Part shown: piece by piece, positions 2,713 through 21,993 of the stretch
Numbering within the stretch: position 1 is the first letter of the stretch
How the letters are laid out: the number at the start of each line of letters is the position of its first letter
IMG/VR virus record: IMGVR_UViG_3300011113_000621
Coordinates: 1-64,000 of that record
DNA: 64,000 nucleotides
Direction: 5' to 3' (one strand)
Source: a virus
Notes under the pieces: model-generated
Database searches by the model: none
Told to the model about the DNA's origin: nothing
What the model saw: the letters and a program-made list of their open reading frames with translations, nothing else
Made by a program: the position numbers and the translations under genes

Positions 2713-3610
2713 GGTATTTATCGCTATCCTTGCAAAGCAAAAGGAAAAGGTACTTCCATTATTCTTGCGCTCGCTTTATGATCTTGACTACCCTAAGGAA
2801 GACATTGCGCTATACGTGAGAACAAACAACAACACGGATAACACGCAACAGATTTTAGATGACTGGCTAAAAGAGCATCGCGCGGAGTATCACTACGTGC
2901 ACTATGATAACAGCGACATCGCAGATAACGTCGAGCAATACGGAGTTCACGAGTGGAACGGCGTGCGTTTTCGTGCGCTCGCAAAGATACGTCAGGCAAG
3001 TCTTGACGCGTTTCTAAGAAGTGACTGTGACTACTACTTTGTCATTGACGTTGACAACTTCCTGTTTCCTGAGACCCTAAAGGATCTTATTGAGGCTAGT
3101 AAGCCAATCATTGCTCCTTTATTGAGATACGCGGTCGCGACAGACGAATTTCCAGACTCTCCAGAGGACCAGGAGCGCGTAGGAAGTCACAAGTGTAGAT
3201 ATTACTCAAACTACCACCACATGGTAGATGACTACGGCTCGATACTAAATGAGCCAGTGTACTATCAACTTCTTCACCGCGTTGAAGGATATAAAGGTAT
3301 ATGGGACGTTGACTGTGTTCACTGCACGTATCTCATCAAGCGAGAACATGTAGATAAGCTTAGCTACCTTGAGGACTCAGATCGTTGGGAGTATATGGTC
3401 TTCTCGGAGTCTGCGCGTAAAGCTCGCATCAACCAATATTTGGACAACCGTAAGATCTACGGAATTCTTACTCTTACTGAGAACGGTCCAATGTGCGAGT
3501 GGTTGTTTGATCACCTAAAGGATCCGGCAACGCGCGACGAGCGCTACCAACAACATAATCCGCAGGACATCTTTTATACGCCTGAGAGGGCAGTAATACT
3601 AAGCGAGTAA
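2702..3610 (+). CDS. GT-A glycosyltransferase resembling the procollagen galactosyltransferase (COLGALT/LH3)/Anp1-type domain
   Basis: VFIAIL...LDYPK...TNNNTDNT...YFVIDVDNFL (DxD)...KPIIAPLL...VHCTYLI. Confidence 0.7.
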   Translation: MASKVFIAILAKQKEKVLPLFLRSLYDLDYPKEDIALYVRTNNNTDNTQQILDDWLKEHRAEYHYVHYDNSDIADNVEQYGVHEWNGVRFRALAKIRQASLDAFLRSDCDYYFVIDVDNFLFPETLKDLIEASKPIIAPLLRYAVATDEFPDSPEDQERVGSHKCRYYSNYHHMVDDYGSILNEPVYYQLLHRVEGYKGIWDVDCVHCTYLIKREHVDKLSYLEDSDRWEYMVFSESARKARINQYLDNRKIYGILTLTENGPMCEWLFDHLKDPATRDERYQQHNPQDIFYTPERAVILSE

Positions 3611-4579
3611 CTCGATACTTGTCTTTACCTTGGCGCTTACCAATATTGCCTCGGCAACCTTTAGGGTTTCAATTCCTGACTCAATTGACGTGACATTCTC
3701 AGATAGACCTAATACGTAGTCGCGGAATGCCTCGTGCTCTGCGAGTAAAGGTTCCTTACGGTTTAGTGAATATCGTGTAACGTCACCTTCCATAACACCT
3801 CTAAAGTTGTCTACGTCATATAAGGAGTTTGGATAATATGTCAACTGTGCATTTAGGGTATCCGCAACGAGCGCGCCTTTTTCACCAAGTATCGTAGTCT
3901 CACGTACCTTAAATGGACTCAGCCAGTCAATCATGTGCGTTGCAACGATACCTCCGTTGAGTTGTCCAATAATTGAGACGATGTCCTCGTGCTCTTTGCC
4001 TGAGTGATACGCGGTATGCGCGGTTACAGTTTCATATTTTCTCTGCGCGATCCACGAGGTAAGATCAATATCGTGCGTTCCTAGATCCTTTACGACACCA
4101 ACGTCCGCAATACGTGTCGGGTGCCAGCCTTGCCTTCTTGTGTAGATCTGGTAGATCTTGCCAAGTTGGCCTGACTCGATACGTTTCTTTGCCTCAATAA
4201 GCGCGGGGTTATAGCGCTCGATTTGCCCAACAGCTCCAACAAGATGCGCGTTTGTAAGCGCGTAGGATATTCTTTGCGCTGAGTCTACGGAGTGTGCAAG
4301 TGGCTTTTCAATGAGAACGTTTGCTCCCATGTCAATGATCTCAAGCGCAACCTCCTCGTGAAGTACGGTAGGAACTGCAACTACACAGTAATCAATGTCT
4401 TTCTTAATAAGATCACTTATCTGGCTAAGCAGTATTTCCTTTTTAACTGCGTTTGTTGGGTCGCCAGCTGGGTCATACACACCCACGAGATCAACGCCAG
4501 AGAGGTTAGAGAGGACACGTGCGTGATTTCTGCCCATCACACCTAAGCCAATAAGTGCGGCCTTTAGATTGGCTCCCAC
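3599..4579 (-). CDS. Gfo/Idh/MocA NAD-dependent NDP-sugar 3-dehydrogenase (WbpB/WlbA-like)
   Basis: Rossmann GLGVMG, EKP motif, ERYNP, DLGTHDID. Confidence 0.85.
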   Translation of the reverse strand: MGANLKAALIGLGVMGRNHARVLSNLSGVDLVGVYDPAGDPTNAVKKEILLSQISDLIKKDIDYCVVAVPTVLHEEVALEIIDMGANVLIEKPLAHSVDSAQRISYALTNAHLVGAVGQIERYNPALIEAKKRIESGQLGKIYQIYTRRQGWHPTRIADVGVVKDLGTHDIDLTSWIAQRKYETVTAHTAYHSGKEHEDIVSIIGQLNGGIVATHMIDWLSPFKVRETTILGEKGALVADTLNAQLTYYPNSLYDVDNFRGVMEGDVTRYSLNRKEPLLAEHEAFRDYVLGLSENVTSIESGIETLKVAEAILVSAKVKTSIELLA

Positions 4580-5664
4580 TAGCTTCCAGCCTTTGCTACC
4601 TTATTAACTGCGTTGACGATCTTGTGAAGATCGCCCATGCTAAGCTTAGGGTGAACAGGAAGAGATAGAACCTGCTTACATGCGGTCTTTGTTTTCTTAA
4701 GATCAAAGTCCTTGTTAAACGAAGGAAGCTTATGAACTGGTGTTGGATAATACACACCTGAGCCAATGCCAAGTTTTTCAAGCTCCTGGGCAAATTGATC
4801 TCTGTCATGATCAACTACACGTATCGTGTATTGGTGATACACGTGCGTATAGCCAAACTCCTCAACAGGGACAATTACTCCTTCAAGGTTCTCGCTAAGA
4901 TACTTTGCGTTCTCGCGACGTAACAGGTTAGCGCGGTGAAGCTTACGTAGTTGAACTCGGCCAATTGCCGCGTGAATATCTGTCATGCGTAGGTTAAATC
5001 CAACAACCTCGTTTGCATATCGTTTTTCCATGCCTTGGTTGCGAAGAAGACGTGCGTATCTTTCTACATTTTCATCTAGGGTAACAACCATGCCGCCCTC
5101 ACCGCTGGTCATGTTCTTTGTTGGATAAAACGAAAACGCAGCCGCGTCGCCAAATGATCCAACGTTTTGTCCAAGAATTTGAGCTCCGTGAGCTTGAGCC
5201 GCGTCTTCAATGACAAGTAGGTTGTGCTTCTCCGCGATGGCAAGAATTTTTTCCATGTTTGCGGGGTGTCCGTAGAGATGAACTACCTGTATCGCGCGTG
5301 TCTTCTTTGTTATTGCAGCCTCAATAGCCTTAGGATCAATGTTAAACGTGTCAAGCTCGATGTCAACAAACACAGGCGTCGCGCCAGTTAGAGCAACTGA
5401 GTTTGCAGTTGCGGCAAACGTAAAGCTTGGAACGATGACCTCGTCGCCCTGCTTTATACCAAGCGATAACAATGCGACGTGTAGAGCTGAGGTTCCGGAG
5501 TTGACGGCAACGCAACGTCGTCCGTCTACCCAGTTAGAGAATTCTTTTTCAAAGGCAAGTACCTGTGGTCCTTGTGCCATGCCGCCTGAGCGTAAAACCT
5601 TGTCAACCGCTTTTCTTTCACCGCGACCAATGTCAGGACTTGCTACGGATATAAACTTACTCAT
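4579..5664 (-). CDS. DegT/DnrJ/EryC1/StrS PLP-dependent NDP-sugar aminotransferase (WbpE-like)
   Basis: NSGTSAL, VHLYG, EDAAQAHGA, SFYPTKNMTSGEGG (PLP lysine), LSLPVHP. Confidence 0.92.
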   Translation of the reverse strand: MSKFISVASPDIGRGERKAVDKVLRSGGMAQGPQVLAFEKEFSNWVDGRRCVAVNSGTSALHVALLSLGIKQGDEVIVPSFTFAATANSVALTGATPVFVDIELDTFNIDPKAIEAAITKKTRAIQVVHLYGHPANMEKILAIAEKHNLLVIEDAAQAHGAQILGQNVGSFGDAAAFSFYPTKNMTSGEGGMVVTLDENVERYARLLRNQGMEKRYANEVVGFNLRMTDIHAAIGRVQLRKLHRANLLRRENAKYLSENLEGVIVPVEEFGYTHVYHQYTIRVVDHDRDQFAQELEKLGIGSGVYYPTPVHKLPSFNKDFDLKKTKTACKQVLSLPVHPKLSMGDLHKIVNAVNKVAKAGS

Positions 5665-6178
5665 GCCAGTATTCTACCTTACCTTCTGCAGTTACAGTTG
5701 CGACAACGCGTGCTGGAACACCCATCACGAGTGAAAATGGCGGAACATCCTTGGTCACAACGGCGCCTGCTGCAACGACTGCCCAGCGACCAATTTTAAC
5801 TGGCGCTACACATATTGCGCCTGCGCCGATTGATGCGCCTTCCTCAACCTCAACTCCGACAGCATGCCAGTCGCTTGAATCTTTTTGCGTCATGTCTGCG
5901 TTGACTGCTCGCGGATAGTGATCATTTGTAAAGATAACTCCTGGACCTATAAAAACTCCGTCGTGCACCTTTGCAGGTTCATAGATCATCGCGCCGTTTT
6001 GGATTTTTGAATTGTCACCAATATGCACGTCAGTTCCAACGTATGCACCTTTTCCAACTATAACGTTTTTTCCAAGATGCGCACCTTTGCGGACTTGAGC
6101 ATGATGCCAGACACGCACACCGTCTTGTAAAGATACACTATCCTCAACACTAGCAGAAGCTTCTACGTGTATTGTCAT
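5657..6178 (-). CDS. Left-handed beta-helix NDP-aminosugar N-acetyltransferase (WbpD/WlbB-like)
   Basis: Hexapeptide repeats, VWH, FIGPGVIFTNDHYPR, GAVVTKDVP...GVPAR. Confidence 0.88.
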   Translation of the reverse strand: MTIHVEASASVEDSVSLQDGVRVWHHAQVRKGAHLGKNVIVGKGAYVGTDVHIGDNSKIQNGAMIYEPAKVHDGVFIGPGVIFTNDHYPRAVNADMTQKDSSDWHAVGVEVEEGASIGAGAICVAPVKIGRWAVVAAGAVVTKDVPPFSLVMGVPARVVATVTAEGKVEYWHE

Positions 6179-6681
6179 ACCTTGTCCTTTTTCTTCTTTG
6201 TCTTTTTCTTACGTGGCTTTACTTTCTTTTCCTTTTTTTGAGCGTGATATGCATCTACCGCGTTAGCGCTCGTTCGCGAGCGCCAGGTAAAGTCACAGGC
6301 CTCGCACTTAACAAGCTTCATCGTGTTCCAACGTCCACCACCAGGAACGTCGACTACCAACGTATGTAATTTATTAGGTCGAGCGTTGCAATATGGACAC
6401 TGTGGAAAACGTTGACGTCGTGATTCCTGACCGTTCCATGAGACAGATAGTGTTCTTCTTATCTCACCTTCGTCTTTTCCACCCCAGATTCCCCAGATCT
6501 GTCTGTGCTCTAACGCCCACTTTAAGCATTCCTGTCTTGCAGGGCAAAGAAAACAAAGATTTTTTGCTTGGTATTTTTCAAAAGGTTGAGTTGAGAAAAA
6601 ATATTCACGTATCTTTTGATTTTCTGACTTAGCACACAAGGCTTCCTTTTGCCAGTCTAAACTTTTAGGAGTTACACTCAT
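6175..6681 (-). CDS. whiB: WhiB-family Fe-S transcription factor with C-terminal Zn-ribbon and basic tail
   Basis: WQKEALC...CFLCPARQEC..WAL...WGIWGG; extra CPYC...CEAC and Lys-rich end. Confidence 0.85.
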   Translation of the reverse strand: MSVTPKSLDWQKEALCAKSENQKIREYFFSTQPFEKYQAKNLCFLCPARQECLKWALEHRQIWGIWGGKDEGEIRRTLSVSWNGQESRRQRFPQCPYCNARPNKLHTLVVDVPGGGRWNTMKLVKCEACDFTWRSRTSANAVDAYHAQKKEKKVKPRKKKTKKKKDKV

Positions 6682-7055
6682 GTAAGTAGCACCTCAACCC
6701 AGGTAACCGGAGTTACATTATCAACTACATCTCCGTATGGTGTTTCTCCGTTTTCATCGCAAACTGAAAGATCGATGTCTCCGTCTACCTCTCCAGCGTA
6801 TCCAATTGAGATCTTTGCATTTTCTAAAGATTGAAAACCATTTCCTAATGAAATTGATATTCCATCACGCTGCAGTGCGGATGCAAGTGCGCGGCGTATT
6901 AACTCGTTCTCGAGGTCAACGTGCTCATCGGTAAAGAAAACTATGCTTTCATCAAGTAGCGGATCAAAGCCGTCACCTGTCCACTCTTTCCATAAAAGTT
7001 CGCCTACGCGTGAGTCCTTCACGATATTCCTCATCTGGGGAGATGGATAGATCAT
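6678..7055 (-). CDS. Hypothetical acidic protein
   Basis: ORF overlaps the whiB start by 4 nt; no recognisable motif; true start may be a downstream GTG. Confidence 0.55.
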   Translation of the reverse strand: MIYPSPQMRNIVKDSRVGELLWKEWTGDGFDPLLDESIVFFTDEHVDLENELIRRALASALQRDGISISLGNGFQSLENAKISIGYAGEVDGDIDLSVCDENGETPYGDVVDNVTPVTWVEVLLT

Positions 7056-7160
7056 ATATCGAGTGGAGTATTCTCGCGATAAGAATCACCGATTATTTTT
7101 TACACGTGAGATTACCCTAGACCTGTAGAGATAGGGTCTTAAAGAGGCAGTGAGTGACTA

Positions 7161-7688
7161 TTAAGCGGCGTTATAAGTGCCAAGATAGAGTTCGCCTTGG
7201 GCATTAGGCCATAGGTATTGATAGTACTCTGGGCGATAACCTTTATCCTCTGGCCAGCCAAACTGTGAGTACCAAGGATAATCTTTACGTAGAAGCGCTA
7301 TACGATGAGTCGATGCAAGCTGTTCATACTTTTCAATATCCTGCATCCAGGATGGAAACTTAAGATCGTCGTCTATACGGCCTATCTTTACCGCATGGTC
7401 ATAGGTAGAAAATATCTTAGGTAGCATTGTTGAGTTAAAGCCGCGGCTAACCCACTCGTTGTAGCAGGCAAGCGTGTATGCGACTAGAGCAGTTTCGTAA
7501 CCGCGCCACATATTTGCCGCAGGGTGATTTGCCCAGCCTTTTGGGTCACGGTTGTTATTGTTAGGGTCAAGACGGCTGATGGTTAAAAGTAATTGCCATG
7601 CCTCAAGTACTTGCTTGTTTAGGCGCTTATTATCAAGCTCGCGAGCAATGTGCTCAAACGAATCAGTATGAGGTAAGAATGTTTGCAT
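7161..7688 (-). CDS. Pyrimidine-dimer DNA glycosylase-like protein (MSMEG_6728 / T4 endonuclease V superfamily)
   Basis: MQTFLP...LDNKRLNKQVLEAWQ...HPAANMWRGYE...HRIALLRKD..WY...YLWP. Confidence 0.8.
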   Translation of the reverse strand: MQTFLPHTDSFEHIARELDNKRLNKQVLEAWQLLLTISRLDPNNNNRDPKGWANHPAANMWRGYETALVAYTLACYNEWVSRGFNSTMLPKIFSTYDHAVKIGRIDDDLKFPSWMQDIEKYEQLASTHRIALLRKDYPWYSQFGWPEDKGYRPEYYQYLWPNAQGELYLGTYNAA

Positions 7689-7713
7689 GGTCGTCCTTTG
7701 TCATTAGGGGTTT

Positions 7714-7724
7714 ATTATATCAGG
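7714..7724 (-). promoter_or_regulatory. Extended -10 promoter CCTGATATAAT
   Basis: Identical 11-mer at 62842 and 63453; upstream of the glycosylase gene. Confidence 0.6.
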
Positions 7725-7995
7725 AACCTTGGTCGTAGTCCTCCTGATTTCCTGGGTCCTCATATTCATCAATTTGGTCAATTGGGACATATATACCTAC
7801 CACCGTTACACGTCCACAGGCGGTACACTCGTTGACGGCGCCTGGAGATAGTTGAATTGGCACGTTTACACTTACCAGGCGCGTGATGATATTACCTCTT
7901 TCATCAACGCTATCTGGCTCCCAAACTGAGTTTTCGTCAATCCAACAACGCTCACATATTGGGACAAGTTCCTCCTCGCCGCCGCGAATACTCAT
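7720..7995 (-). CDS. Small putative Zn-binding protein
   Basis: CERC and CTAC pairs; translationally coupled to the upstream MTase-like gene. Confidence 0.55.
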   Translation of the reverse strand: MSIRGGEEELVPICERCWIDENSVWEPDSVDERGNIITRLVSVNVPIQLSPGAVNECTACGRVTVVGIYVPIDQIDEYEDPGNQEDYDQGS

Positions 7996-9230
7996 GTGTA
8001 CATCTTCTTTGCAGCTTGACGTGAGAAACCGCGATCTGTATCAATTAAAAATTCTCTATCACCAATTTTTTGTGCATCGCCTTGTTGTGGATTTCCCTCT
8101 AGTGATTCCTTAAGTGCCTTTGCAATCCATGAGGCTGCTTGCACTGGAACTGCCTTTCCCCACGTTGCCGCGAGCGCAGAGTAATCCTTTGATCCTTCAA
8201 TGTCCCAATCATCAGGAAGTCCCTGCATGCGTGCGCACTCTCTATGAGTTATAAGTCTTGGCTGTGTCGGGTGAATAACATGCTCTAACGCAGAGCCAGT
8301 TAACACGTTACACCAGTGATCTTCCTTCCATCGATAAGGTTGACTAAAGCCTAGCTTAAACTCTCTACGCTTAATACGTGGAGCCACATCAATCCACGTT
8401 TGAGGAAACGTATTATCGTTCATTTCCACTGCAAGCTTTACAGCCTTTCCAAGATCTCCGTTTCCTGGCCAGTTTTCGTTTCCTATTATGTCGAATACAT
8501 CTTTTATTCTTTGAACATGTATGTTGTTTTTTCCAATGTGCCCATCTACCTTTTGACTTTTAGATCTAAGATGTTTAACATGCTTTGATGGCGCAGGCTC
8601 AGTGTAAGGTTGTTTACTCCAACTTTGTGGCATTTCTGCAAGATCACCAATGATGTCCATAATCCTTGGAAGCTCTTTAGTCTTTGGCGTTGTAACGTCG
8701 AACTTAAGTCCTTTTCTTACAGCAACCCAAAAGTATCTTGGACGATAAGAAAATCCACCAAGTTGTAGGTTATTGTGTTTAACGTGATAAAGATCATACT
8801 TTTTACCAGAAACTTCCTCGACCATATCGCGATACTTAAGCATTACATCTCTACCTTGAGTATAGGCTTGTTGAACACACTCAAAGACGACCGCTTGAGG
8901 TTTTACGCGTCCTGCGTATTTCATAAATGCCCTTGTGTGTTCATGCGCCTTTGCATCAATTCCTCTATTACTCGGCCCTGACCATACCGACCATCCTGAG
9001 CATGGCGGACAACCAAGAACTATGTCTGTCTTCTTTGTTTCCCACTCGCTTGCATCATCTGAGAAGTTTGCTATCCAATTGTTTCCCATATGAGTTCTGT
9101 TGTTTTCAACTACCTGGTTTCCAAAGTTTAATGTCCCTGTGCGATGAATCATTTCCATTTCATTTTGCACAAAGCCAAGACTCATAAAGCCAGCAAGACC
9201 ATTGCAGTCAACAAACGTCATTTGTGACAT
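7992..9230 (-). CDS. Divergent C5-cytosine DNA methyltransferase-fold enzyme
   Basis: Motif IV GCPPCSGWS, VI FECV, VIII RPRYFWVA, IX RLITHRECARMQGLPDDW, X GKAVP; motif I degenerate (DCNGLAGF). Confidence 0.8.
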   Translation of the reverse strand: MSQMTFVDCNGLAGFMSLGFVQNEMEMIHRTGTLNFGNQVVENNRTHMGNNWIANFSDDASEWETKKTDIVLGCPPCSGWSVWSGPSNRGIDAKAHEHTRAFMKYAGRVKPQAVVFECVQQAYTQGRDVMLKYRDMVEEVSGKKYDLYHVKHNNLQLGGFSYRPRYFWVAVRKGLKFDVTTPKTKELPRIMDIIGDLAEMPQSWSKQPYTEPAPSKHVKHLRSKSQKVDGHIGKNNIHVQRIKDVFDIIGNENWPGNGDLGKAVKLAVEMNDNTFPQTWIDVAPRIKRREFKLGFSQPYRWKEDHWCNVLTGSALEHVIHPTQPRLITHRECARMQGLPDDWDIEGSKDYSALAATWGKAVPVQAASWIAKALKESLEGNPQQGDAQKIGDREFLIDTDRGFSRQAAKKMYT

Positions 9231-9307
9231 TTTTCCCTCTCGTAACTAAGTCCTACGGATGGACTGTATACTGAGAGGAAAGATGCGACCTGTCTAAATC
9301 ACTTTAT

Positions 9308-9610
9308 TTAGCTAGTTTTTTCTGCCTGGGTTCTTCCTACCTCATACCCGCAACCAGCGTATCCTGCAATATCAATCCAGGTATCAGGTTGAAACCCAGA
9401 CTTATTTGCGTATCGCGCGATCTTTAACCCAATCATTAACATTCCCACGTCCTCCTGGGTAATGTTTATCCCAAGAATCACTGACCATATTCTTGCAATG
9501 CGATCAAAGTTTTCCTCAGGACCTCCATATTGAATGTCACGGTCACCTACAATGATGCGCGCAGCTTCACGCAATGCCTCTACTCGATATAAAGATTTCT
9601 CATCACTCAT
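9308..9610 (-). CDS. DUF6378-like phage protein (frequently found in nucleotide-metabolism clusters)
   Basis: L.EA..II.GDR...YG.PEENF.RIA..WS...LKIAR...DTWIDIAGYAGC. Confidence 0.75.
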   Translation of the reverse strand: MSDEKSLYRVEALREAARIIVGDRDIQYGGPEENFDRIARIWSVILGINITQEDVGMLMIGLKIARYANKSGFQPDTWIDIAGYAGCGYEVGRTQAEKTS

Positions 9611-9611
9611 A

Positions 9612-9812
9612 TTATTCCTCTATCTTTGTCTTTACAATTACATATGCCATGTATCTTTTATCATTTTCTGTAGATGCAAGCATGCGCACCTCAGCGCCTA
9701 ATGGAAGTTTTGCGTCTTCATCTTCATTTATTCTCTTCCACTCAGCTAGTACTTTTTCCTTTACCTGTGAAATAGTTTCACCTGACACATAAAATTCAAT
9801 AGACGATCTCAT
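9612..9812 (-). CDS. Hypothetical protein
   Basis: Tightly packed ORF (ATGA overlap) inside the operon. Confidence 0.55.
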   Translation of the reverse strand: MRSSIEFYVSGETISQVKEKVLAEWKRINEDEDAKLPLGAEVRMLASTENDKRYMAYVIVKTKIEE

Positions 9813-10228
9813 TGAATTCGTTTCTGCAGTTGATAAGGAGCGTAGTGAGCGCCATCAAGAATTGGTTCCTTGTCATCAGTTGACTTAAACACAATATCTC
9901 CGTAGCGCACGGCAACAACGCGTCCTCTTCTTCCATTGTGAATAACTCCTGTACTACCGTCATAGGCATCAGCCTTTACGCGAACCTCATCACCTACGGT
10001 AATTGATCCAGGTTGAGCATCAATCCATTTTTCAGTTGGCGGCTCAGGAACAATTGAGTGTGTAAGCGCAAGTTGTGGAAACAACGCAACGACCTCCTTT
10101 ACTTGTGGATTAGAAAGATCAAGCGTTTCCCACGTCTTTAGTAACTTTAAGATGGCGTTTCCAACACCAACCTTTACACGTGCACCTTGCATTTGTTGGC
10201 GCACCCAGTCATAATTTACCTCAGGCAT
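9809..10228 (-). CDS. Hypothetical protein with SH3/KOW-like C-terminal domain
   Basis: ITVGDEVRVK...HNGRRGRVVAVRYGDIVF; overlaps both neighbours. Confidence 0.55.
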   Translation of the reverse strand: MPEVNYDWVRQQMQGARVKVGVGNAILKLLKTWETLDLSNPQVKEVVALFPQLALTHSIVPEPPTEKWIDAQPGSITVGDEVRVKADAYDGSTGVIHNGRRGRVVAVRYGDIVFKSTDDKEPILDGAHYAPYQLQKRIQ

Positions 10229-10706: not shown

Positions 10707-10711
10707 GACTA

Positions 10712-12954: not shown

Positions 12955-12970
12955 AGTACTCCTCTCGTGC

Positions 12971-13030
12971 TAAGTGTGTTTAGCGCGTCACCTACGCATA
13001 ATATACATAGGTGACGACTAAACGCACTTA
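12971..13030 (-). terminator. Long stem-loop after the SSB gene (terminator or processing site)
   Basis: Arms taagtgtgtttag...gtcaccta and taggtgac...ctaaacgcactta; no clear U-tract. Confidence 0.45.
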
Positions 13031-13552: not shown

Positions 13553-13555
13553 TGA

Positions 13556-14326: not shown

Positions 14327-14329
14327 GCG

Positions 14330-15259
14330 TCACTCACTTCCTTTCTTCTCTTCTGTTCCGTAGTATCCATATGGATCTCCTACATCGAACATTTCACTGA
14401 TTGCTTGTTCGGCGGCGCTTCCGTCGTCTAACAGTGGGCATACAGTGAAAAACTGGCATTTCCATTTGCAGTCGCGACTTGGGCGCGGATATGCAACGTA
14501 GCGATGATCTGCACCTGCGTCAAGGTCATCGCGTGTTTTCATTAGGTCAGTTAAAACTCCATTTACTCTTTGCCAAAATGAACGTAAGGCAAAGACATTG
14601 TGACGTACCTCAATTTGATCAAAAAATGGTGGACGTGCATTTGCGCTTCTTTTTACCTTTTTTAACAAGGTAAATATTCCGCCTTCGCTTCTTTCACCGT
14701 CTTTATTTTGTGCTGTCTCAAGTAACATATATGTAAGTATCTGCTCATTCATGTGCGCCATTGCACCAAAGTCTGTAAATGATCCACCGACAGTCTTAAA
14801 GTCGCGGAACATACGCACACCATCAGCCTTACGACGAACACGCATATCAATCTTTCCTTGAAGCTCTACGCGTCCCTCAAGCATTGGCATTGAAATAATT
14901 TCCTCGGTAGAGATCATCTCTAGCTCTGAGTCAATTCCGTTTTCCTCAACCCATTGCAGATAACCTTCAAGCATGATGCGTCCAAGCTCTGCCTCAGAGT
15001 CAAGGTCGTAAGTATCACGAAATGAATCCTCTAATGCCTTGCGGTCCGTTGCAACTAATATAGAGTGCGCCTCTAAAAGTGGAATACCTTTCGAGTAGTA
15101 GTCATCAAGTGCCTGGTGAATGCGGCTTCCAAGTGCGAGCGCGCCTGTCATCTGTTGTGTTTTAGGTTGTAAACGTCTGTAGTAACTTAGCCACCACTTA
15201 CGCTTGCAGTCCTTATAGGTTTGAACTTCAGAGTTGGAAATCTTTATAGGCTCTGTCAT
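14330..15259 (-). CDS. PD-(D/E)XK Cas4/RecB-like exonuclease
   Basis: S.SE...YKDC.RKW, GSRIH, GKID, RDFKT, C-terminal C..C.....C. Confidence 0.8.
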   Translation of the reverse strand: MTEPIKISNSEVQTYKDCKRKWWLSYYRRLQPKTQQMTGALALGSRIHQALDDYYSKGIPLLEAHSILVATDRKALEDSFRDTYDLDSEAELGRIMLEGYLQWVEENGIDSELEMISTEEIISMPMLEGRVELQGKIDMRVRRKADGVRMFRDFKTVGGSFTDFGAMAHMNEQILTYMLLETAQNKDGERSEGGIFTLLKKVKRSANARPPFFDQIEVRHNVFALRSFWQRVNGVLTDLMKTRDDLDAGADHRYVAYPRPSRDCKWKCQFFTVCPLLDDGSAAEQAISEMFDVGDPYGYYGTEEKKGSE

Positions 15260-17061
15260 AGTTTTCCTGCCTTATCATCTTTAAGTAAGCTAAGTAGCTT
15301 GTCTTTGTCACGAACAATTTGTTCGAAGTTGTCTGCCTTGGTTTCAAGAACTTGAATCACCCGTTCCTCAATAGTTCCCTCAGTAACATAGTCTGTCACA
15401 ATAATTGAGTCATGAATTTCTGATCCAATACGGTGTACACGATCCAAGGCCTGCTTGTGATCAACAAGTGACCATGGACGTTGCAACATGATTAGGCGAC
15501 GTGCGGCAGTTAGTGTAATACCAACTCCACCTGCCTGGGCTGTAAAAAGAATCCACTTGATCTTGCCTGCTTGAAAATCATCAACCGCTTGTTGACGTTC
15601 GTCCTCGCTTTGAGATCCAGTGATAAGACCGTGTCGTATATCTTCCTTAGTCAGTGCAGCGCTTAAAAGATAGATTAACTGTCTTGAGACTGCACATACG
15701 GCGACTGAGTCATTTCCAAAGTCACCATTTTTTATATCGTCCATCAATGCCTCAACCTTACAAGATGGATCTGCAAGAACAGCTTTAATCTCGCCTGTAG
15801 TTTCGTTTGTTGCCATTTCGGCGTATGAACTTGCAAACTGTAAAAGACGAATTGTTTGTGTAAGCGCAGATGGTGCGGTAAGCGCCTCTCCGCCTTCTAG
15901 CTCTGCAATCATCATGTCACGCATTTGGTCATAAGCTTTCTTTTGCTTAGTTGACATCTCTACATCACGACGTTCAAACATCATCTCTGGTAGCCATGGA
16001 AGTACCTTTGCCTTAAGCATACGACGCATACGTGGATTTATTGCTGCATAAAATTCTTGTTCCATGTGAGGCTTAACACCTAAAACCATCATGCCGCCAA
16101 AGGCATTAAGCATGGTGTTAATCATTCTGTCAACCCAACGTGTTTTACTTGGCCACTCATTTGGGCTTAGCCAGTGAAGAATTGACCACAGATCTAAAAC
16201 ATCGTTTGCAATTGGTGTTCCTGTAAGTGCAAATCTAATATCCGCATCACCTGTGGCAGCCCAAAGCGCACGAGTCTGCTTTGACTTTGCTTCCTTGGAC
16301 CTGTGAATTTCGTCAGCTATAACTGCCTTAAAATCAATGTTGTTTAGCTCACGCGGGTGAACTTCGCAGCGATTTTCCGACACCTTTTCATCGTGTCCGC
16401 CGCAGGACTGACACCTTGCTAGAGCAATGGACCCATAACCTGCCAGGCGTGAATGTGTTCTTAAACCTTCCCAGTTAATTACGTAAACATCCGCTGGTTC
16501 TTCAAATTGCTTACGGCGTTGACCTGCGCTTCCTTTGATGACTTGCACGTTTACGTCTGGCCACCACTTTACAAACTCACGCTTCCAATTTTTCTTTAGG
16601 GTATTAGGGCAAACTACCAAGGCAGGGAATATATCCTCACCTGAGTCCTTAAATGCCTTTAATGCGCGTATTGCCTGGGCAGTCTTACCAAGGCCAGGCT
16701 CGTCGGCAAGTAGGGCACGTCGCGCAGTCTTCAAAAATGCAACGCCAGCTCTCTGGTGGGGAAATAGGTCCGCGTTAGAGAGGTCCTCTAGGGTCTCTAG
16801 GTCACGTAGAGTATTCGCTGGGGTAATCCGATTGGCAAGCTCATTGGTGGCCCAGTCGGTCAATTTAGGGCCAATAATTAGGTCATTTCTAAAGGTAGAT
16901 CTCAACGCGAGACACGTTGCCCAGCTCAATGGGACTGTCCACACGCTCAGCTTTGTGTCCCACTTTGCACCAGGTAAGCTTTTACAAAGTTCCTTAAAGC
17001 GCCACTCAGCATTGATTACTACGTGCTTGTTTGTATCGTCAAGCTCTACGTTCACAGACAC
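15256..17061 (-). CDS. SNF2-family DNA helicase
   Basis: LADEPGLGKT, DEIH, LTGTPIAN, GGVGITLT, QALDRVHRIG. Confidence 0.92.
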   Translation of the reverse strand: MSVNVELDDTNKHVVINAEWRFKELCKSLPGAKWDTKLSVWTVPLSWATCLALRSTFRNDLIIGPKLTDWATNELANRITPANTLRDLETLEDLSNADLFPHQRAGVAFLKTARRALLADEPGLGKTAQAIRALKAFKDSGEDIFPALVVCPNTLKKNWKREFVKWWPDVNVQVIKGSAGQRRKQFEEPADVYVINWEGLRTHSRLAGYGSIALARCQSCGGHDEKVSENRCEVHPRELNNIDFKAVIADEIHRSKEAKSKQTRALWAATGDADIRFALTGTPIANDVLDLWSILHWLSPNEWPSKTRWVDRMINTMLNAFGGMMVLGVKPHMEQEFYAAINPRMRRMLKAKVLPWLPEMMFERRDVEMSTKQKKAYDQMRDMMIAELEGGEALTAPSALTQTIRLLQFASSYAEMATNETTGEIKAVLADPSCKVEALMDDIKNGDFGNDSVAVCAVSRQLIYLLSAALTKEDIRHGLITGSQSEDERQQAVDDFQAGKIKWILFTAQAGGVGITLTAARRLIMLQRPWSLVDHKQALDRVHRIGSEIHDSIIVTDYVTEGTIEERVIQVLETKADNFEQIVRDKDKLLSLLKDDKAGKL

Positions 17062-17146
17062 CTAAAAGGTTCCTTTCGTCATTAAGTCGTTATACTAACA
17101 GGTTTTGATAAAAAAGTAACTACATTTTGACCTAGTATGTAGATTT

Positions 17147-17611
17147 TTATTGGAGCAGGCGCAAGGGCTTCCATCCTAACTTTACACAGCGCAAAAGACC
17201 GTGGCGAATCGCATCTAACGCGTGTCCGTCACCGCCCTTATGCCAATATTCCAACTTTTTCAACTTAGGATTATCAAACATTGCCTTGGCGTCCGCTGGA
17301 GACTGGAAGATAATTGAATCAGGATCTAATCCACTATCTAGCATTATCTGTTTTAGAACGCCAATTTGCTCAAGGCTATAAGGTGCCTGTGAGTTGCGCA
17401 CCGTTTGTGCGTTTATGATAAACCTTTCGCAAACTACTTGTATTGCTATGTTACCTACCTTTGCGGTATTTAGTGCCTCACGTATTGGCTGAGCGTATTC
17501 TTTCATTTGATACTCGCCAGACATTATAATTTTTGGCTCGTCTCCAAGGTTTAAGGAAATCAACGCAATTCCACTTGCCTTGCCAGGGTCAACTGCTAGT
17601 ATATGCATCAC
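17147..17611 (-). CDS. RuvC-like Holliday-junction resolvase (RNase H fold)
   Basis: ILAVDPGKASG, VVCE, HALDAIRH; directly after polA. Confidence 0.7.
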   Translation of the reverse strand: MMHILAVDPGKASGIALISLNLGDEPKIIMSGEYQMKEYAQPIREALNTAKVGNIAIQVVCERFIINAQTVRNSQAPYSLEQIGVLKQIMLDSGLDPDSIIFQSPADAKAMFDNPKLKKLEYWHKGGDGHALDAIRHGLLRCVKLGWKPLRLLQ

Positions 17612-19434
17612 TTATATTTTTCTCCCCAGTTTTCCATAGGCCCGTCTATTCCTGCAGTAAGAGGAACATCCCAGCCTTGCGTAGTTGTCATGCACTGCTT
17701 AACAATGTTTTTAATTTCTTCAACGTCCTTCCTTGGCGCGTTAAGAACAATTTCATCGTGTACTGGAACTATGAGAAGTTCAGTTAAGTCAGCTTGATCT
17801 AACTTAACAAGGTTTGCCTTAAATACCTCGGCAGCGCCTCCTTGGATTAAATAATTCACCAGTGTGTAAACTCGGTCTTCATCGCACGGAAGGCGTCTGC
17901 CTGTCCATGTATATACATACCCTTGACCTTCTGCCTTTAGGCGACGCATTCCAGCATCTTCAATTTGGCGTTGAAAGTGCGACATTCCAGGAAACCTTGT
18001 ATCAAAAGCATCTGATACAGATCTCATTTGCCCTTCTTGTACTCCAGCTGTAATTGCTTGCTTCGCGACTCCAGCTCCATAAAGACGACCGTATACCGTT
18101 CCTTTAATAAGGTTACGACGCTTATCTGAGCGTTGCATATTTGGATCGTTGTAGATTTCTCTACCAATTTCCGTAAACGGATCTGACCCAGTAGCATCAG
18201 CTCTATTGAATAGGTTGATGAGATTTGGATCTTGCGAGAGCGAGGCAAACATTCTGAACTCGACTTGGTCAAGGTCGCTGGTAACAATGACATGTTCATC
18301 GTCCTTTGGGATAAATGCCGTGCGAACAGTGTCATCACCCTTAGGCAATGTCTGCAAGGCTGGATTTTGTATGCTCATACGACTCGTGCGAGCGCCAAGT
18401 GTTTTTACGGAAGGGTGAACTACTCCGTTTACGTTATCACTTAAGAAGTTTGAAAAATAAGTGTTTGCAAGCTTGTCTGCCTTACGTTGTTTTAACACGA
18501 TTTCGGCAAGATTTTTTACCTCGTCGTTTCCGTTAATGGTAAGTAGCTTTAATTGGTCCTTTGTTGCAGATTTTTGTCCTGTAGGTGTAAATTCTGTAAT
18601 TTCCGCGCCAAGTTTTTCAAAAAGACGCACTAGTTGAATGTTACTTGATATGGAAGTGCCGTTGTAGGTCTGCTTAGCCCAGTCTTTTACCGACTGACTG
18701 TAATCATTTAGCTCGTCATACTTTCTTTTAGAGTACTCAAGGTCTACGCGTGCTCCATTGATCTCCATGCGCGTAACGATCTTGCGTGCAGCCATTTCAA
18801 GTTCGTAAGCGCGGTTATATGGACCCGTAGGACCGCACTTTTCATAAAACATCTCCCACAGACGCATTGTAAGCACTGTATCAAGTGCTCCGTATGCCCA
18901 AAACGGTTCAAAGTTTACTGGAACTGTTCCCCATGTCCAACCATTTTCAATAAGCTTAAGGTCTAAGGTATCTTGCAACGCAACTGCGCGGCCATCAACG
19001 TGTAGTGCGGCAAGTTGCTTTAACGCACCAGATCCTAAAGGGTCAATTATGTGTGCCATAATCATAGTGTCGTGTGACCTATGCCATGGAATGTCCCAGC
19101 GTGATTGAACTGCAAACCAACGAGCCTCAAATGCTATGTTGTGACACACTAAAGGTCCATCAAACTTGTCCATAGCCTCGTAGAAAACACCAGCCCACTC
19201 TTGCCAAGGAATAGACCAACCTTGTTGGCCATCTCCGACTTGAACAAGACGTAGTTGACCGTGCCATGGAGATAGCGCATCACTGCGTTGACCACCTGGA
19301 CGCTCACCAGTTTCTGTATCAACTGCAATTGCGTTGTGTGGGCGTCTTTCACCGAGCCAACGTATAAAGGCATTAGCCTTTTCTACGCTGTCTACAAGGT
19401 GAAGCTTGACGTCGCCTAGTCCGCTATCTGTCAT
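17608..19434 (-). CDS. polA: Family A DNA polymerase (3'-5' exonuclease + polymerase)
   Basis: ExoI VDTET, HN..FE, YGALD; motif A DLDQVEFR, motif B KGTVYGRLYG, NYLIQGGAA, motif C VHDE. Confidence 0.95.
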   Translation of the reverse strand: MTDSGLGDVKLHLVDSVEKANAFIRWLGERRPHNAIAVDTETGERPGGQRSDALSPWHGQLRLVQVGDGQQGWSIPWQEWAGVFYEAMDKFDGPLVCHNIAFEARWFAVQSRWDIPWHRSHDTMIMAHIIDPLGSGALKQLAALHVDGRAVALQDTLDLKLIENGWTWGTVPVNFEPFWAYGALDTVLTMRLWEMFYEKCGPTGPYNRAYELEMAARKIVTRMEINGARVDLEYSKRKYDELNDYSQSVKDWAKQTYNGTSISSNIQLVRLFEKLGAEITEFTPTGQKSATKDQLKLLTINGNDEVKNLAEIVLKQRKADKLANTYFSNFLSDNVNGVVHPSVKTLGARTSRMSIQNPALQTLPKGDDTVRTAFIPKDDEHVIVTSDLDQVEFRMFASLSQDPNLINLFNRADATGSDPFTEIGREIYNDPNMQRSDKRRNLIKGTVYGRLYGAGVAKQAITAGVQEGQMRSVSDAFDTRFPGMSHFQRQIEDAGMRRLKAEGQGYVYTWTGRRLPCDEDRVYTLVNYLIQGGAAEVFKANLVKLDQADLTELLIVPVHDEIVLNAPRKDVEEIKNIVKQCMTTTQGWDVPLTAGIDGPMENWGEKYK

Positions 19435-19924
19435 TTACGTCCTTTGTTATTGTTACTTCTATATTACACTGTAAAAAGTACTCTACGGTCTCATCAGGAA
19501 GGCGATGAGACGCACGAGTGCCAATTCTCATAACAACACGACGTATTCCAGCGTTTGATATTAACTTTGCGCATTGATAACATGCTGCATCAGTTATGTA
19601 TATGGTTCCACCTTCAACGCGCGAGCGATCTACATATAAAAGTGCATTTGCCTCCGCATGTATTGACGGGCAGGAATCATACGTATTTGTCAAAGGAACT
19701 ACTCCTTGAGCGCGTGGGCACCATTCAATACAGTCACCTTCAACCGCAAGTGTCGCAGCGGGTCCGTTGTATCCTGTAGATGAGATACGTTGACTCTTTG
19801 AGACAACAACTGCACCTATTTGCGCACGACTACAGCGTGAACGTTTGGCAATTGAGTCTGCCACCGACATCCACGTTTCATCCCAGGAGGGTCTAGTTAG
19901 ATGATTCAGGTGGTCCTCCAACAA
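19424..19924 (-). CDS. dCMP deaminase (ComEB-like)
   Basis: RPSWDE, RS.C.R.QIGAV, TGYNG, HAEANA, CYQC. Confidence 0.9.
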   Translation of the reverse strand: MLEDHLNHLTRPSWDETWMSVADSIAKRSRCSRAQIGAVVVSKSQRISSTGYNGPAATLAVEGDCIEWCPRAQGVVPLTNTYDSCPSIHAEANALLYVDRSRVEGGTIYITDAACYQCAKLISNAGIRRVVMRIGTRASHRLPDETVEYFLQCNIEVTITKDVNDR

Positions 19925-20093
19925 TCATGCTGTTAAAAAGCTTGCTAATTAAAAACATAGCTTCCCTACGAGTAAACCCAGCCGCCTGCAGTTCAGTGTA
20001 CATCTCATGAAGTTGAACCATGGCAGCCTTCATTGGGCTTTCATACATGTCTTCAATTTCACGTTTTAATTTTTTCATCTTCTCTTCATCCAT
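19893..20093 (-). CDS. Small hypothetical protein
   Basis: ATG at 20093 overlaps the end of the TS-like gene; LHEMY..L..AGFTRREA motif. Confidence 0.55.
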   Translation of the reverse strand: MDEEKMKKLKREIEDMYESPMKAAMVQLHEMYTELQAAGFTRREAMFLISKLFNSMIVGGPPESSN

Positions 20094-20952
20094 TTGATTT
20101 TTCCTTATTCTTCTCAATGGCGCGTATCATTGCACTAGCATACCATCCTTCAAAGGGGTGAAGTCTATACCGTAACATTGTCTCTTCTATATGCTGAGCG
20201 GCAGTTAACGCGCTTAAGGCATATGATGAAACTTGCTGCCAAGTTAATCCAGTGATGGCTGGAATATCCTCATACTTGTCTGTGTACTTTAACTTATCAG
20301 CCATATCATAGTGTTGCTCGTAGATATGAAGAGATCCAACGTGGTGTGTGTAGTTTCCAGGCTCAATACCTAACACAGACGCAATTGCAAGTTGAACACG
20401 CGTAAATTGAAAGAAGTCATACGCGGCTCCAAGCCACACATCGTTCGAGCGCATAAATACAGTCATGTTTAACTTATTGTCACGTATTCTAAATTGGTGA
20501 AGTATCGTGCAGGGGTAGTCACGTTTCTTTGGAAGTAGATCGAGTTCAGGATTCCATATCGTAACAACTGCCTGTCTTGTGTCTGGGTCCTGCCTTAGTC
20601 TTTCAATAACCTTTTCATATTGGCCATTAGTTCTTAGACCATATGCGCCATGAAACAGTCCGTTGTCCTCAGCGTAGTTCTTAAATTGCGGGCCAACTGC
20701 AATGACAAGTTTTGGCGTTGATACTCCAGCGAGAAGTTGACACGCCTCAACCGCACCAATACCTGGAACAGTTCCGCGTCCTACACCTAATGGTAAGGTG
20801 TTCTTTACGTCATCAATGCGAATTACCGCGTCCTCGATCTCACGGGTCTTCATTCCGCGCGGAGCGGTTTCTCGACCGTGCTCTAAGACGTGTTTAACAA
20901 GATCAACGTATCCGTTAACTCCGTCTGGTATATTTATTATCGCAGTATCCAC
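20086..20952 (-). CDS. Thymidylate-synthase homolog of dCMP-hydroxymethylase type
   Basis: AYG.R, DPDTRQA, catalytic PC, RSNDVWLGAAYD (Asp at the E. coli Asn177-equivalent position), GSLHIY. Confidence 0.85.
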   Translation of the reverse strand: MDTAIINIPDGVNGYVDLVKHVLEHGRETAPRGMKTREIEDAVIRIDDVKNTLPLGVGRGTVPGIGAVEACQLLAGVSTPKLVIAVGPQFKNYAEDNGLFHGAYGLRTNGQYEKVIERLRQDPDTRQAVVTIWNPELDLLPKKRDYPCTILHQFRIRDNKLNMTVFMRSNDVWLGAAYDFFQFTRVQLAIASVLGIEPGNYTHHVGSLHIYEQHYDMADKLKYTDKYEDIPAITGLTWQQVSSYALSALTAAQHIEETMLRYRLHPFEGWYASAMIRAIEKNKEKSNG

Positions 20953-21950
20953 TGGCTCTCCCTGTCATATCGTAGTGATTGCTTAAATATCTCGTGCCCG
21001 TAATCTAGCTTGCGTGCGTTAGAGAAACGCCTTACATATTGCGGATGAGGAAGAACAACGTATTGGTGTTCCTTAAATCCATGAGCCTTTAGTCCTTTTT
21101 CTGCTTGGCTCCCAAGTGCAATTATTCTTGGTCTTCTTAATACCTGCCACAACTCGTCAACCTGCGTAACGTGCTCATCATTTACATTTATAATTCCCAT
21201 GGTCTTCCAAGAGTTACCTGGAAGAGATGATAACAAGAAATCACCAGAGTTTCCATCAACAGGCATAAATGGTAGTATTGTCTCCTTACCGTAAGCTTCC
21301 TTTATATTTTGTCTATCTCCAACAAGTAGTACCTGCGCGTCATAACGTCCAATGTACCAAGGAAATTGCTTAAGACTAGCTGCCTTAGTTTCCGCGTAGT
21401 ATGAGTTACTTATTATTTTTTCTGCAAGCATGGGAATATCATGTAGAGATTCGCTTGACGGGTTTAACATCTCGAACTCAGTGGCAACCTCGTCTGCCGC
21501 AAGTCGATATTGACCAAGGATCTTGCCAAGCTCATCACTAGTTACGTAATCGTCACCGCGAGATGAAAGACGACGTTGAATCACGTCTAAAGGTTGATAG
21601 AGCCAAAATTGATGAACACCGCGAGAGGCAAGAAAGAGTTCAACCCAACGCCAGCCCGCGACACCAAGTAGACCGTATCCGTCTTTATTATACTCGGGGC
21701 GTTTTAATGGAGAATATGTTTTTTCACCCCAGTGCCAACGGTCCGCGATCACGTTAGTAGCAGTAAAGTTACAGTTTTCTACAGATGTAACATAGTCTTG
21801 TAAAACCCAGCGACGGGTCATTTCTTGCGGCTTACTTTTATGAAAAAATTCTAGTTTCTTGTTAGGCTGAATTAAAAGTAGACCTTCTTTTATAGCGTCT
21901 ACAAGAGTAGATTTGCCAGAAGCATCTGTGCCCTCTATTATTATAAACAT
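20937..21950 (-). CDS. dNMP (thymidylate-like) kinase fused to a uracil-DNA-glycosylase-fold domain
   Basis: IEGTDASGKST P-loop and IADRWH; C-terminal VLLVGD...PF..VDGNSG...IIALG..A...HPQY. Confidence 0.75.
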   Translation of the reverse strand: MFIIIEGTDASGKSTLVDAIKEGLLLIQPNKKLEFFHKSKPQEMTRRWVLQDYVTSVENCNFTATNVIADRWHWGEKTYSPLKRPEYNKDGYGLLGVAGWRWVELFLASRGVHQFWLYQPLDVIQRRLSSRGDDYVTSDELGKILGQYRLAADEVATEFEMLNPSSESLHDIPMLAEKIISNSYYAETKAASLKQFPWYIGRYDAQVLLVGDRQNIKEAYGKETILPFMPVDGNSGDFLLSSLPGNSWKTMGIINVNDEHVTQVDELWQVLRRPRIIALGSQAEKGLKAHGFKEHQYVVLPHPQYVRRFSNARKLDYGHEIFKQSLRYDRESQWILR

Positions 21951-21993
21951 TAGCCCTCTCGTCGTTCTGTCTTTTAACTATTATACAATAGTA

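Follow-up and report, generated by a model that had tools for sequence, protein, structure and literature searches.

A near-gapless operon combines nucleotide, glycosyltransferase and amino-sugar genes

We analyzed the first 64 kb (the window; GC ~45%) of the IMG/VR record IMGVR_UViG_3300011113_000621, a single virus sequence of 99,753 bp that represents a fragment with an estimated completeness of 72%. Its source is an uncultured actinobacterial phage from lake or freshwater, a siphovirus with PolA. On the minus strand of the window, a near-gapless run of genes leads from the start of a kinase gene (21950) to the stop of an oxidoreductase gene (3599). This run is the subject of our study and appears to encode a system that replaces the cytosines of the phage DNA with 5-hydroxymethylcytosine (hmC) and glycosylates them. 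An earlier note, made from the letters of the window, had described a co-oriented, tightly packed cluster at this site; with gene families assigned by Pfam, PHROGs and NCBIfam, we recovered every gene that it named, all on the minus strand and within exactly the limits that it had set.

The run starts with a P-loop nucleotide kinase (20937-21950), whose N-terminal half is thymidylate-kinase-like (phrog_761, 3.8e-10 over residues 1-158), followed by a thymidylate synthase (TS) homolog (20086-20952; PF00303, 3.9e-29) and a dCMP deaminase (19424-19924; PF00383, 6e-19). Beyond a block of replication genes described below lie two paralogous glycosyltransferases of the GT-B class, gtB (11734-12954; 406 aa) and gtA (10712-11737; 341 aa), a MazG/dUTPase_2 nucleotide pyrophosphohydrolase of the dimeric-dUTPase type (10221-10706; PF08761, 1.1e-11; phrog_18650, 1.3e-19) and an enzyme with the C5-cytosine-methylase fold (MTase-fold; 7992-9230; PF00145, 1.5e-24). 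The run ends with three amino-sugar genes, here called the trio: a sugar N-acetyltransferase with a left-handed β-helix of hexapeptide repeats (5657-6178; PF00132, 9e-26), a DegT-family NDP-sugar aminotransferase (4579-5664; PF01041, 4.5e-125) and a Gfo/Idh/MocA oxidoreductase resembling NDP-sugar 3-dehydrogenases (3599-4579). Two features were absent from the earlier note. A gene for a WhiB-type regulator (6175-6681; PF02467, 2e-15), which is the final operon gene in relatives devoid of the trio, sits between the trio and the remaining module genes, and two family 2 glycosyltransferase genes on the plus strand (GT2a, which carries a TPR domain, and GT2b; 1645-3610; Pfam; phrog_13126, 1.9e-69) converge on the trio.

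The TS homolog points to synthesis of 5-hydroxymethyl-dCMP

The TS homolog scores 102 bits against PF00303 (cut-off 24.3), with its 'YPCT' aligned on the catalytic Cys146, and its closest solved structure is the CMP hydroxymethylase MilA (5b6d, 5e-22). Lee et al. 2026 (PMC13326640) assayed a large set of viral TS homologs in vivo and provide residue criteria for such enzymes: Asp at Asn177 denotes specificity for cytosine rather than uracil, an acidic residue at Leu143 denotes a hydroxymethyl rather than a methyl product, and every tested 5-hydroxy-dCMP synthase carries D169N. In our alignment, the segments 'RDYPC', 'RSND' and 'RSNDVWLGAAYD' correspond to L143D, C146, a retained D169 and N177D; RSNDVWLGAAYD aligns with RANDAFRGAVSD of MilA and places an Asp where the E. 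coli enzyme has Asn177. This four-site signature is identical in Actinomycetia phage DSL-LC01, in Gordonia phages and in the relatives from IMG/VR. Because N177D and L143D occur together with a retained D169, and because the signature is the same in relatives, 5-hydroxymethyl-dCMP (hm-dCMP) is our best call for the product. The earlier description of the protein as a dCMP-type TS homolog thus holds, as judged from the four residues and the proximity to MilA. A search of the record, at 72% completeness, gave no second TS.

The genes around the TS homolog would fit such a product. The kinase shows a weak match to YorR (2axp/3kb2), and its counterpart in DSL-LC01 is annotated as thymidylate kinase; we regard it as a candidate hm-dCMP kinase. 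Likewise, the hydrolase shows weak matches to dimeric dUTPases and is a candidate dCTPase/dUTPase. The dCMP deaminase is kept beside the TS homolog in relatives.

Two paralogous glycosyltransferases are predicted to adopt the fold of T4 BGT

Neither gtA nor gtB has a match in Pfam (E 0.01), while the two proteins are recognizably paralogous (21% identity, E 1e-12). We built alignments for both from metagenomic homologs, which for the gtB family amount to 618 cluster representatives, and used these for AlphaFold2 (AF2) modeling, yielding pLDDT values of 91.9 for gtA and 94.8 for gtB. T4 β-glucosyltransferase (BGT) is the first structural match of both models, each a GT-B fold with two Rossmann domains, and aligns over the whole chain with Z 18.5 and an r.m.s.d. 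of 3.7 for gtA (298 aligned residues) and with Z 19.5 and an r.m.s.d. of 3.9 for gtB (303-306 aligned residues). The next matches are SenB (Z 16.9 for gtA and 17.8 for gtB) and then T4 α-glucosyltransferase (AGT; Z 15.4 and 17.0). Since BGT is the top structural match and a link at the sequence level is lacking (see below), the models place gtA and gtB as BGT-fold enzymes in a family of their own, rather than as members of the BGT family. Asp96 is invariant in gtA and Asp95 nearly invariant in gtB, each following strand 4; they are candidate counterparts of Asp100, the catalytic base of BGT. Among relatives, gtA is 44-98% and gtB 77-99% identical, showing that gtA evolves faster. Paralogy and structural rank thus agree with the earlier proposal of two BGT-like GT-B paralogs. 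We consider both to be candidate glycosyltransferases of hmC in DNA, with gene association pointing to this acceptor.

The MTase-fold enzyme keeps its cytosine-attacking residues and has an altered donor pocket

The residues by which C5-methylases attack cytosine are all retained in the MTase-fold enzyme and invariant in its family alignment, i.e. PPCS (motif IV), the Glu of ECV (motif VI) and the Arg-x-Arg of RPR (motif VIII). The donor side looks different. Motif I reads NGLAGF (HGFGGG in Micrococcus phage Kurnik) and not FxGxG, so that the S-adenosylmethionine (SAM) motif is missing, no conserved acid follows strand 2 or occupies the positions of motifs II/III, and the N-terminal 60 residues fail to align to M.HaeIII. 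Moreover, motif X is GKAV or GKGV with an invariant Lys, as opposed to the canonical Gly-Asn-(Ala/Ser)-Val. These features are constant across the Gordonia, Micrococcus and lake-phage homologs, and enzymes of this type were seen only in phages with a dCMP-type TS. Judging from this alignment, we take the enzyme to be an integral part of the module with a rebuilt donor pocket, which likely modifies cytosine or hmC in DNA by a reaction other than methylation, with carboxymethylation as one candidate. An atypical C5-methylase belonging to the module had been claimed before, and the degenerate motifs I-III and X, together with the co-occurrence with the core genes in relatives, speak for it.

The core module recurs in unrelated viruses

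We then compared the locus with other viruses. Among 80 relatives in IMG/VR, every sufficiently long stretch keeps the order kinase, TS homolog, dCMP deaminase, gtB, gtA, MazG, MTase-fold enzyme and whiB, with further genes after the deaminase and on either side of the MTase-fold gene. The gtB family is also present in cultured phages, namely in DSL-LC01, whose gene order equals that of the window, in 13 Gordonia phages, which likewise encode the TS homolog and the atypical MTase-fold enzyme, and in T4-like Aeromonas, Vibrio and Stenotrophomonas phages. Of the latter, Aeromonas phage phiAS4 encodes a single member of the gtB family together with a gp42-type TS that shows the four-site signature; of three neighboring genes of ~350 aa considered as paralogs there, profile comparison retained only the middle one. 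Micrococcus phage Kurnik (L084) encodes the TS homolog, deaminase, MazG and atypical MTase-fold enzyme in the same layout. In the slot of the GT-B pair, Kurnik carries two glycosyltransferases of ~250 aa (9805-11321), one with a weak, sub-threshold match to GT25, which are possibly of the GT-A type.

In several proteins, the gtB-family domain is fused to other domains: to a C5-MTase-fold domain (P0325, P0372 and P0388; single open reading frames of 829-1100 aa in L108, L110 and L111), to dUTPase_2 (P0284) and to class I methyltransferase domains (P0285 and P0294). The fused C5-MTase-fold domains carry PPCA at motif IV and ARGV or ARAV at motif X; a search of IMG/VR with P0388 gave no match. 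A metagenome scan further turned up numerous contigs from the sea, soil and lakes in which MTase-fold and glycosyltransferase genes are neighbors or fused. Where such loci span at least 10 kb, a TS homolog is present in 36 of 39 and a dCMP deaminase in 32 of 39, and all 45 TS homologs that could be aligned at the four sites read Asp-Cys-Asp-Asp. Because of the fusions, the adjacency and this uniform signature in unrelated viruses, sequence comparison ties the gtB family, the cytosine-C5 enzyme and hm-dCMP synthesis together. The earlier note had expected the genes of the cluster to co-occur in relatives; those of the core do so in the IMG/VR relatives, DSL-LC01 and the Gordonia phages, while the trio is confined to the closest clade.

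The amino-sugar trio is an accessory cassette at the edge of a glycan island

The oxidoreductase matches the UDP-GlcNAc 3-dehydrogenase family NF040723 (1.1e-64, below its cut-off) as well as GnnA (7bvj) and WlbA (3q2k/3q2i). The aminotransferase is a generic DegT enzyme matching QdtB (2e-74), WbpE (5e-63) and others, and the acetyltransferase, of the WlbB/WbpD/QdtC kind, has WlbB (3mqg, 8.7e-30) as its best solved relative and also matches 3-amino-sugar N-acetyltransferases such as QdtC. A 3-dehydrogenase, an aminotransferase and an N-acetyltransferase thus occur together, with all matches at the family level and below equivalog cut-offs. Neither a 6-dehydrogenase (PF03721, WbpA) nor a 2-epimerase (PF02350, WbpI) was found in the record, and no 4,6-dehydratase lies within the trio block. 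Owing to these matches and absences, the most coherent product is a UDP-2,3-diacetamido-2,3-dideoxy-hexose, which the trio most plausibly makes from UDP-GlcNAc. The earlier assignment of a WbpB/WbpE/WbpD-like trio for a 3-acetamido sugar is consistent with the GnnA/WlbA, DegT and WlbB/QdtC matches.

The trio is found in the closest clade only, and in all other relatives the GT2 genes directly follow WhiB. In comparison to G001, a relative that is 88% identical, nucleotide identity amounts to 93-95% across the DNA module and falls abruptly at the boundary of whiB and the acetyltransferase gene, to 63-78% in the trio and 78-82% in the GT2 genes, and is gone left of 1625. In another contig (L095), identity reaches 96% for the aminotransferase but 74% for gtA, 78% for the MTase-fold enzyme and 74-85% for the core. 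There are two alleles of the trio, ~67% identical to each other. Based on the drop in G001 and the divergent identities in L095, the two alleles appear to reassort independently of the core, and the pattern marks the trio as a later-acquired accessory cassette at a mosaic hot spot.

On its other side, the trio meets the GT2 genes, which form the 3' end of a plus-strand operon. In the window, a glycine-rich-domain protein encoded upstream of them is cut by the contig end (3-1040, plus strand; PF21722, 8e-12) and is a candidate glycosylated fiber protein; in G001, the operon opens with three large collagen-repeat proteins. The TPR domain of GT2a shows a faint similarity to the substrate-binding domain of collagen prolyl hydroxylase. 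We read this region as a hypervariable fiber-glycan island, with the trio at its edge. In the complete relative G003 (L094), positions 5401-19601 encode three Gly_rich_2 proteins, a collagen-repeat protein, an APS kinase, two sulfotransferases, GT2 and DXD glycosyltransferases, an NDP-sugar epimerase/dehydratase and a radical-SAM/SPASM enzyme; this operon could provide sulfated glycans on virion fibers. In the trio-less relatives L016, L020 and L032 (~16900-17760), GT2b is inverted and lies on the whiB strand, at the place that the trio occupies here.

Searches for the trio in an independent context, in cultured phages, IMG/VR and bacterial genomes, found none. The aminotransferase retrieved only unrelated cyanophage and enterobacterial matches from cultured phages, in IMG/VR both the aminotransferase and the oxidoreductase led back to the same eight contigs, all from this clade, and to no others, and the oxidoreductase had a single match, at 30%, in bacterial genomes. 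Scans for promoters and terminators did not reach the level expected from shuffled sequence and thus set the trio off as no unit of its own. A comparison of gtA with GT2a/b divergence between trio-bearing and trio-less relatives does not tell the two possible users of the trio apart.

A predicted pathway for glycosylated hmC and its alternatives

With this information at hand, we propose the following pathway. The TS homolog would convert dCMP into hm-dCMP, as its residue signature and family suggest, and the adjacent P-loop kinase would phosphorylate this product. By their family membership, the MazG/dUTPase_2 hydrolase would clear dCTP and dUTP from the pool and the dCMP deaminase would feed dUMP to the dTMP synthesis of the host. 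PolA would then incorporate hmC, giving hmC-DNA, on which gtA and gtB, judging from fold and gene association, could glycosylate the 5-CH2OH group with a UDP-sugar as donor. The two enzymes may use different sites, or act successively to build a disaccharide. The MTase-fold enzyme, with Lys replacing the Asn of motif X, would probably carry out a non-methyl reaction on cytosine or hmC in the DNA. Taken together, we read the core (6175-21950) as a putative T4-style two-stage cytosine hypermodification system set in a replication module, and the trio (3599-6178) as an accessory cassette that leans towards the fiber. We assign this reading as a whole a probability of roughly 60%. Within it, the predicted conversion of cytosine to hmC via the nucleotide pool, followed by glycosylation through two BGT-fold enzymes, is well supported by sequence, fold and comparison.

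Several points weigh against this reading. The margin of BGT over generic GT-B enzymes is small (1.5-3 Z units), and the profile of the gtB family retrieves neither BGT at E 10 nor any other solved structure, so that gtA and gtB have no sequence link to the BGT family PF09198 (GT63). The assignments of the kinase and the MazG hydrolase are weak and at family level. A C5-acting enzyme would have no obvious substrate if all cytosine were already hmC; perhaps only part of the cytosine is replaced, or the steps follow another order. In the literature that we searched, we saw no report on the DNA chemistry of this phage or of any relative, be it a Gordonia, Micrococcus or DSL-LC01-type phage. With respect to the trio, its genes are co-oriented with the DNA operon and its start overlaps the whiB stop, which ties it to the transcript of that operon, and DSL-LC01 (L001) encodes a UDP-galactopyranose mutase (16040-17137) between its two GT-B genes. 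This position indicates that this phage group does recruit NDP-sugar enzymes to DNA glycosyltransferases. The DSL-LC01 paper took the mutase for a cell-wall auxiliary gene and the MTase for an ordinary methylase; we regard galactofuranosyl decoration of hmC as at least as likely as the published cell-wall reading.

The best-surviving alternative holds that the trio belongs to the DNA pathway, such that a BGT-fold enzyme, most likely gtA, puts the 2,3-diacetamido sugar on hmC or on a first sugar. Besides the shared strand, the overlap with whiB without a separate leader or promoter in sight and the mutase of DSL-LC01, it draws on the NDP-sugar pathways found in the genomes of published phages that glycosylate their DNA (PMC13326640), on N-acetylhexosamine on 5hmC being already known (bioRxiv 10.1101/2023.12.21.572611), and on the faster divergence of gtA, which is expected if donor specificity varies. 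However, most relatives keep gtA and gtB without the trio, its alleles reassort independently of both, it abuts the GT2 genes of the hypervariable island, and no context was found in which it lies beside GT-B genes alone. The claim of the earlier note that the 3-acetamido sugar goes on DNA is thus possible and not favored, because the trio is clade-restricted, reassorts and lies beside the GT2 genes of a fiber operon rather than being co-conserved with the DNA module. In our estimate, the GT2a/GT2b pair, acting on glycine-rich or collagen-like virion fibers, has an even chance of being the user of the sugar, the DNA glycosyltransferases hold a lesser though considerable share, and the remainder falls to something else. 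A hitherto undescribed two-part decoration of the DNA, in which the BGT-fold enzymes would set the trio-made 2,3-diacetamido-2,3-dideoxy-hexose on hmC and the Lys-type MTase-fold enzyme would act on cytosine or hmC through new chemistry other than methylation, we consider doubtful.

A further alternative concerns the MTase-fold enzyme, which might be a CmoX-like carboxymethyltransferase that uses carboxy-SAM of the host and writes 5-carboxymethylcytosine on unreplaced cytosines. SpCmoX has Arg-350 in place of the motif X Asn, in contact with the carboxymethyl group of carboxy-SAM, and M.MpeI engineered to carry N374K takes this donor, too (Cx-SAM; PMC12783734). The Lys of GKAV stands at the same position, and relatives fused or adjacent to a glycosyltransferase carry an Arg there (ARGV/ARAV). 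Yet, the subfamily does not conserve motif I and the acids of motifs II/III, which bind the adenosyl part, and the family always accompanies an hm-dCMP synthase, which would take away the substrate. Moreover, no CmoA (TIGR00740) was found in the record, 72% complete as it is; CmoA of the host could substitute. We judge this activity unlikely, while keeping it as one candidate for the non-methyl reaction of the proposed pathway.

It is improbable that the modified base is not hmC at all, with the TS homolog making another C5-modified dCMP (5-methyl or 5-hydroxy) or its product being deaminated to 5-hydroxymethyl-dUMP. TS homologs with N177D do include 5-hydroxy-dCMP synthases, the deaminase adjoins the TS homolog and the hydrolase belongs to a dUTPase family; however, Asp169 is kept here, unlike in those synthases, and L143D accompanies hydroxymethyl and not methyl products (PMC13326640). 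A methyl product would also leave the glycosyltransferases without an acceptor. As for the deaminase, T4 has one alongside hmC, too. Finally, we deem it very improbable that the GT-B pair glycosylates a host or virion component, with TS homolog, kinase and deaminase serving nucleotide supply only: although the fold is generic, with SenB, PimA and BshA at most 3 Z units from BGT, and a sequence-level link to BGT is lacking, the genes lie inside a nucleotide and replication operon, members of their family are neighbors of, or fused to, dUTPase_2 and an enzyme fold acting on C5 of DNA cytosine, three unrelated groups of viruses combine the family with the hm-dCMP synthase signature, and a dCMP-specific TS homolog has no role in ordinary nucleotide supply.

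Further genes and features of the operon

The pathway genes are interspersed with replication and recombination genes (13028-19434, minus strand, assigned by Pfam), namely PolA (17608-19434), a RuvC-like gene (17147-17611), a SNF2 helicase (15256-17061), a PD-(D/E)XK nuclease, an AAA_24 RecA-like protein and a DUF669 protein, in the same order as in DSL-LC01 and Kurnik. The RuvC-like gene is 68% identical in nucleotides to that of G001, compared to 91-93% for its neighbors, and looks like an allelic replacement within a conserved operon. A DUF6378 protein (9308-9610; PF19905, 1.2e-27) is kept inside the module in relatives. The DNA glycosylase (7161-7688; Pyr_excise, PF03013, 1.3e-17), which had been counted as part of the modification system, is of the T4 endonuclease-V type acting on pyrimidine dimers; it shows no sign of a role in modification and probably serves UV repair.

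An early leader motif that occurs phage-wide (AACGACGAAAGGAC, allowing 2 mismatches) has copies on the minus strand at 21953-21966 and 17070-17083, immediately ahead of where the kinase and helicase genes start, and none before the trio. The kinase gene is the candidate first gene of the operon. Between it and the tail genes lies a GIY-YIG/NUMOD3 homing endonuclease gene (21994-22548, minus strand), which is missing from G001; the alignment to this relative skips exactly that stretch.

Implications

If our main reading is true, glycosyl-hmC DNA is not peculiar to T-even phages but would be common in abundant freshwater actinophages, soil Gordonia phages and many marine viruses, and its writer would be an uncharacterized glycosyltransferase family with several hundred cluster representatives. 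As glycosyl-hmC DNA resists many restriction enzymes, phages carrying it may be underrepresented in metagenomes or read incorrectly there. That the glycosyltransferase and a rebuilt cytosine-C5 enzyme repeatedly occur side by side or as one protein points to an uncharacterized reaction on DNA; the conserved C5 enzyme is the most interesting element of the module. Since carriers exist in culture (Gordonia phages Forza, GodonK and GMA2; Micrococcus phage Kurnik), the prediction is directly testable. Enzymes of this kind also serve as tools to map 5hmC.

Comparison with known systems

The earlier note knew of no characterized phage with this combination of genes. This stands for the exact set, whereas its components have precedents: glycosyl-5hmC with diverse sugars is reported in a preprint (bioRxiv 10.1101/2023.12.21.572611), and phage NDP-sugar pathways for DNA have been published (PMC13326640).

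The trio resembles WbpB/WbpE/WbpD (WlbA/WlbC/WlbB) and GnnA/GnnB in its block of Gfo/Idh/MocA 3-dehydrogenase, DegT aminotransferase and left-handed β-helix N-acetyltransferase. Unlike the Wbp/Wlb pathways, it is not accompanied by a WbpA 6-dehydrogenase or a WbpI 2-epimerase in the record, and its product is probably the neutral UDP-GlcNAc3NAc instead of a mannuronic acid.

The DNA cytosine C5-carboxymethyltransferase CmoX of Synechococcus phage S-B43 shares the C5-MTase fold and a basic residue at the Asn of motif X with the MTase-fold enzyme; the latter differs in having Lys instead of Arg, eroded motifs I-III, no CmoA/CmoY partner seen and an hm-dCMP synthase always beside it (PMC12783734). 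Clusters of a methyltransferase, a TET-type dioxygenase and a glycosyltransferase (bioRxiv 10.1101/2023.12.21.572611) also combine a C5-methylase-fold enzyme with DNA glycosyltransferases, and hexose and N-acetylhexosamine on 5hmC are documented there. In contrast to these clusters, hmC would arise in the nucleotide pool here, and the methylase-fold enzyme has no canonical SAM motifs. A search for TET/JBP gave no match in the record, but was equally silent on control genomes.

Phages RB69, DLP3 and RL38J1, which contain glycosylated 5-hydroxycytosine, likewise encode a TS homolog beside a thymidylate-kinase-like kinase and GT-B DNA glycosyltransferases, as well as NDP-sugar genes (PMC13326640), including a UDP-galactopyranose mutase like that of the sister phage DSL-LC01. 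Their synthases carry D169N and make 5-hydroxy-dCMP, whereas Asp169 is kept here, and their sugar genes lie within the DNA cluster, whereas the trio lies at the operon end (PMC13326640).

The closest parallel is the glucosyl-5-hydroxymethylcytosine pathway of T4, made up of the dCMP hydroxymethylase gp42, the kinase gp1, the dCTPase/dUTPase gp56, the deaminase cd and the α- and β-glucosyltransferases. Whereas the T4 pathway is established, the present system is a prediction from sequence. It belongs to an actinobacterial siphovirus with PolA that does not use a T4-type replisome, its glycosyltransferases are a sequence family of their own that neither Pfam nor profiles connect to BGT, its kinase is thymidylate-kinase-like and not gp1-like, and it includes the conserved C5-methylase-fold enzyme as an extra component. 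Nevertheless, both systems would follow the same logic with the same set of activities: the specificity residues of the TS homolog are the same, and an all-α NTP pyrophosphatase, a dCMP deaminase, a nucleotide kinase and two GT-B enzymes, here structurally closest to T4 BGT, accompany it.

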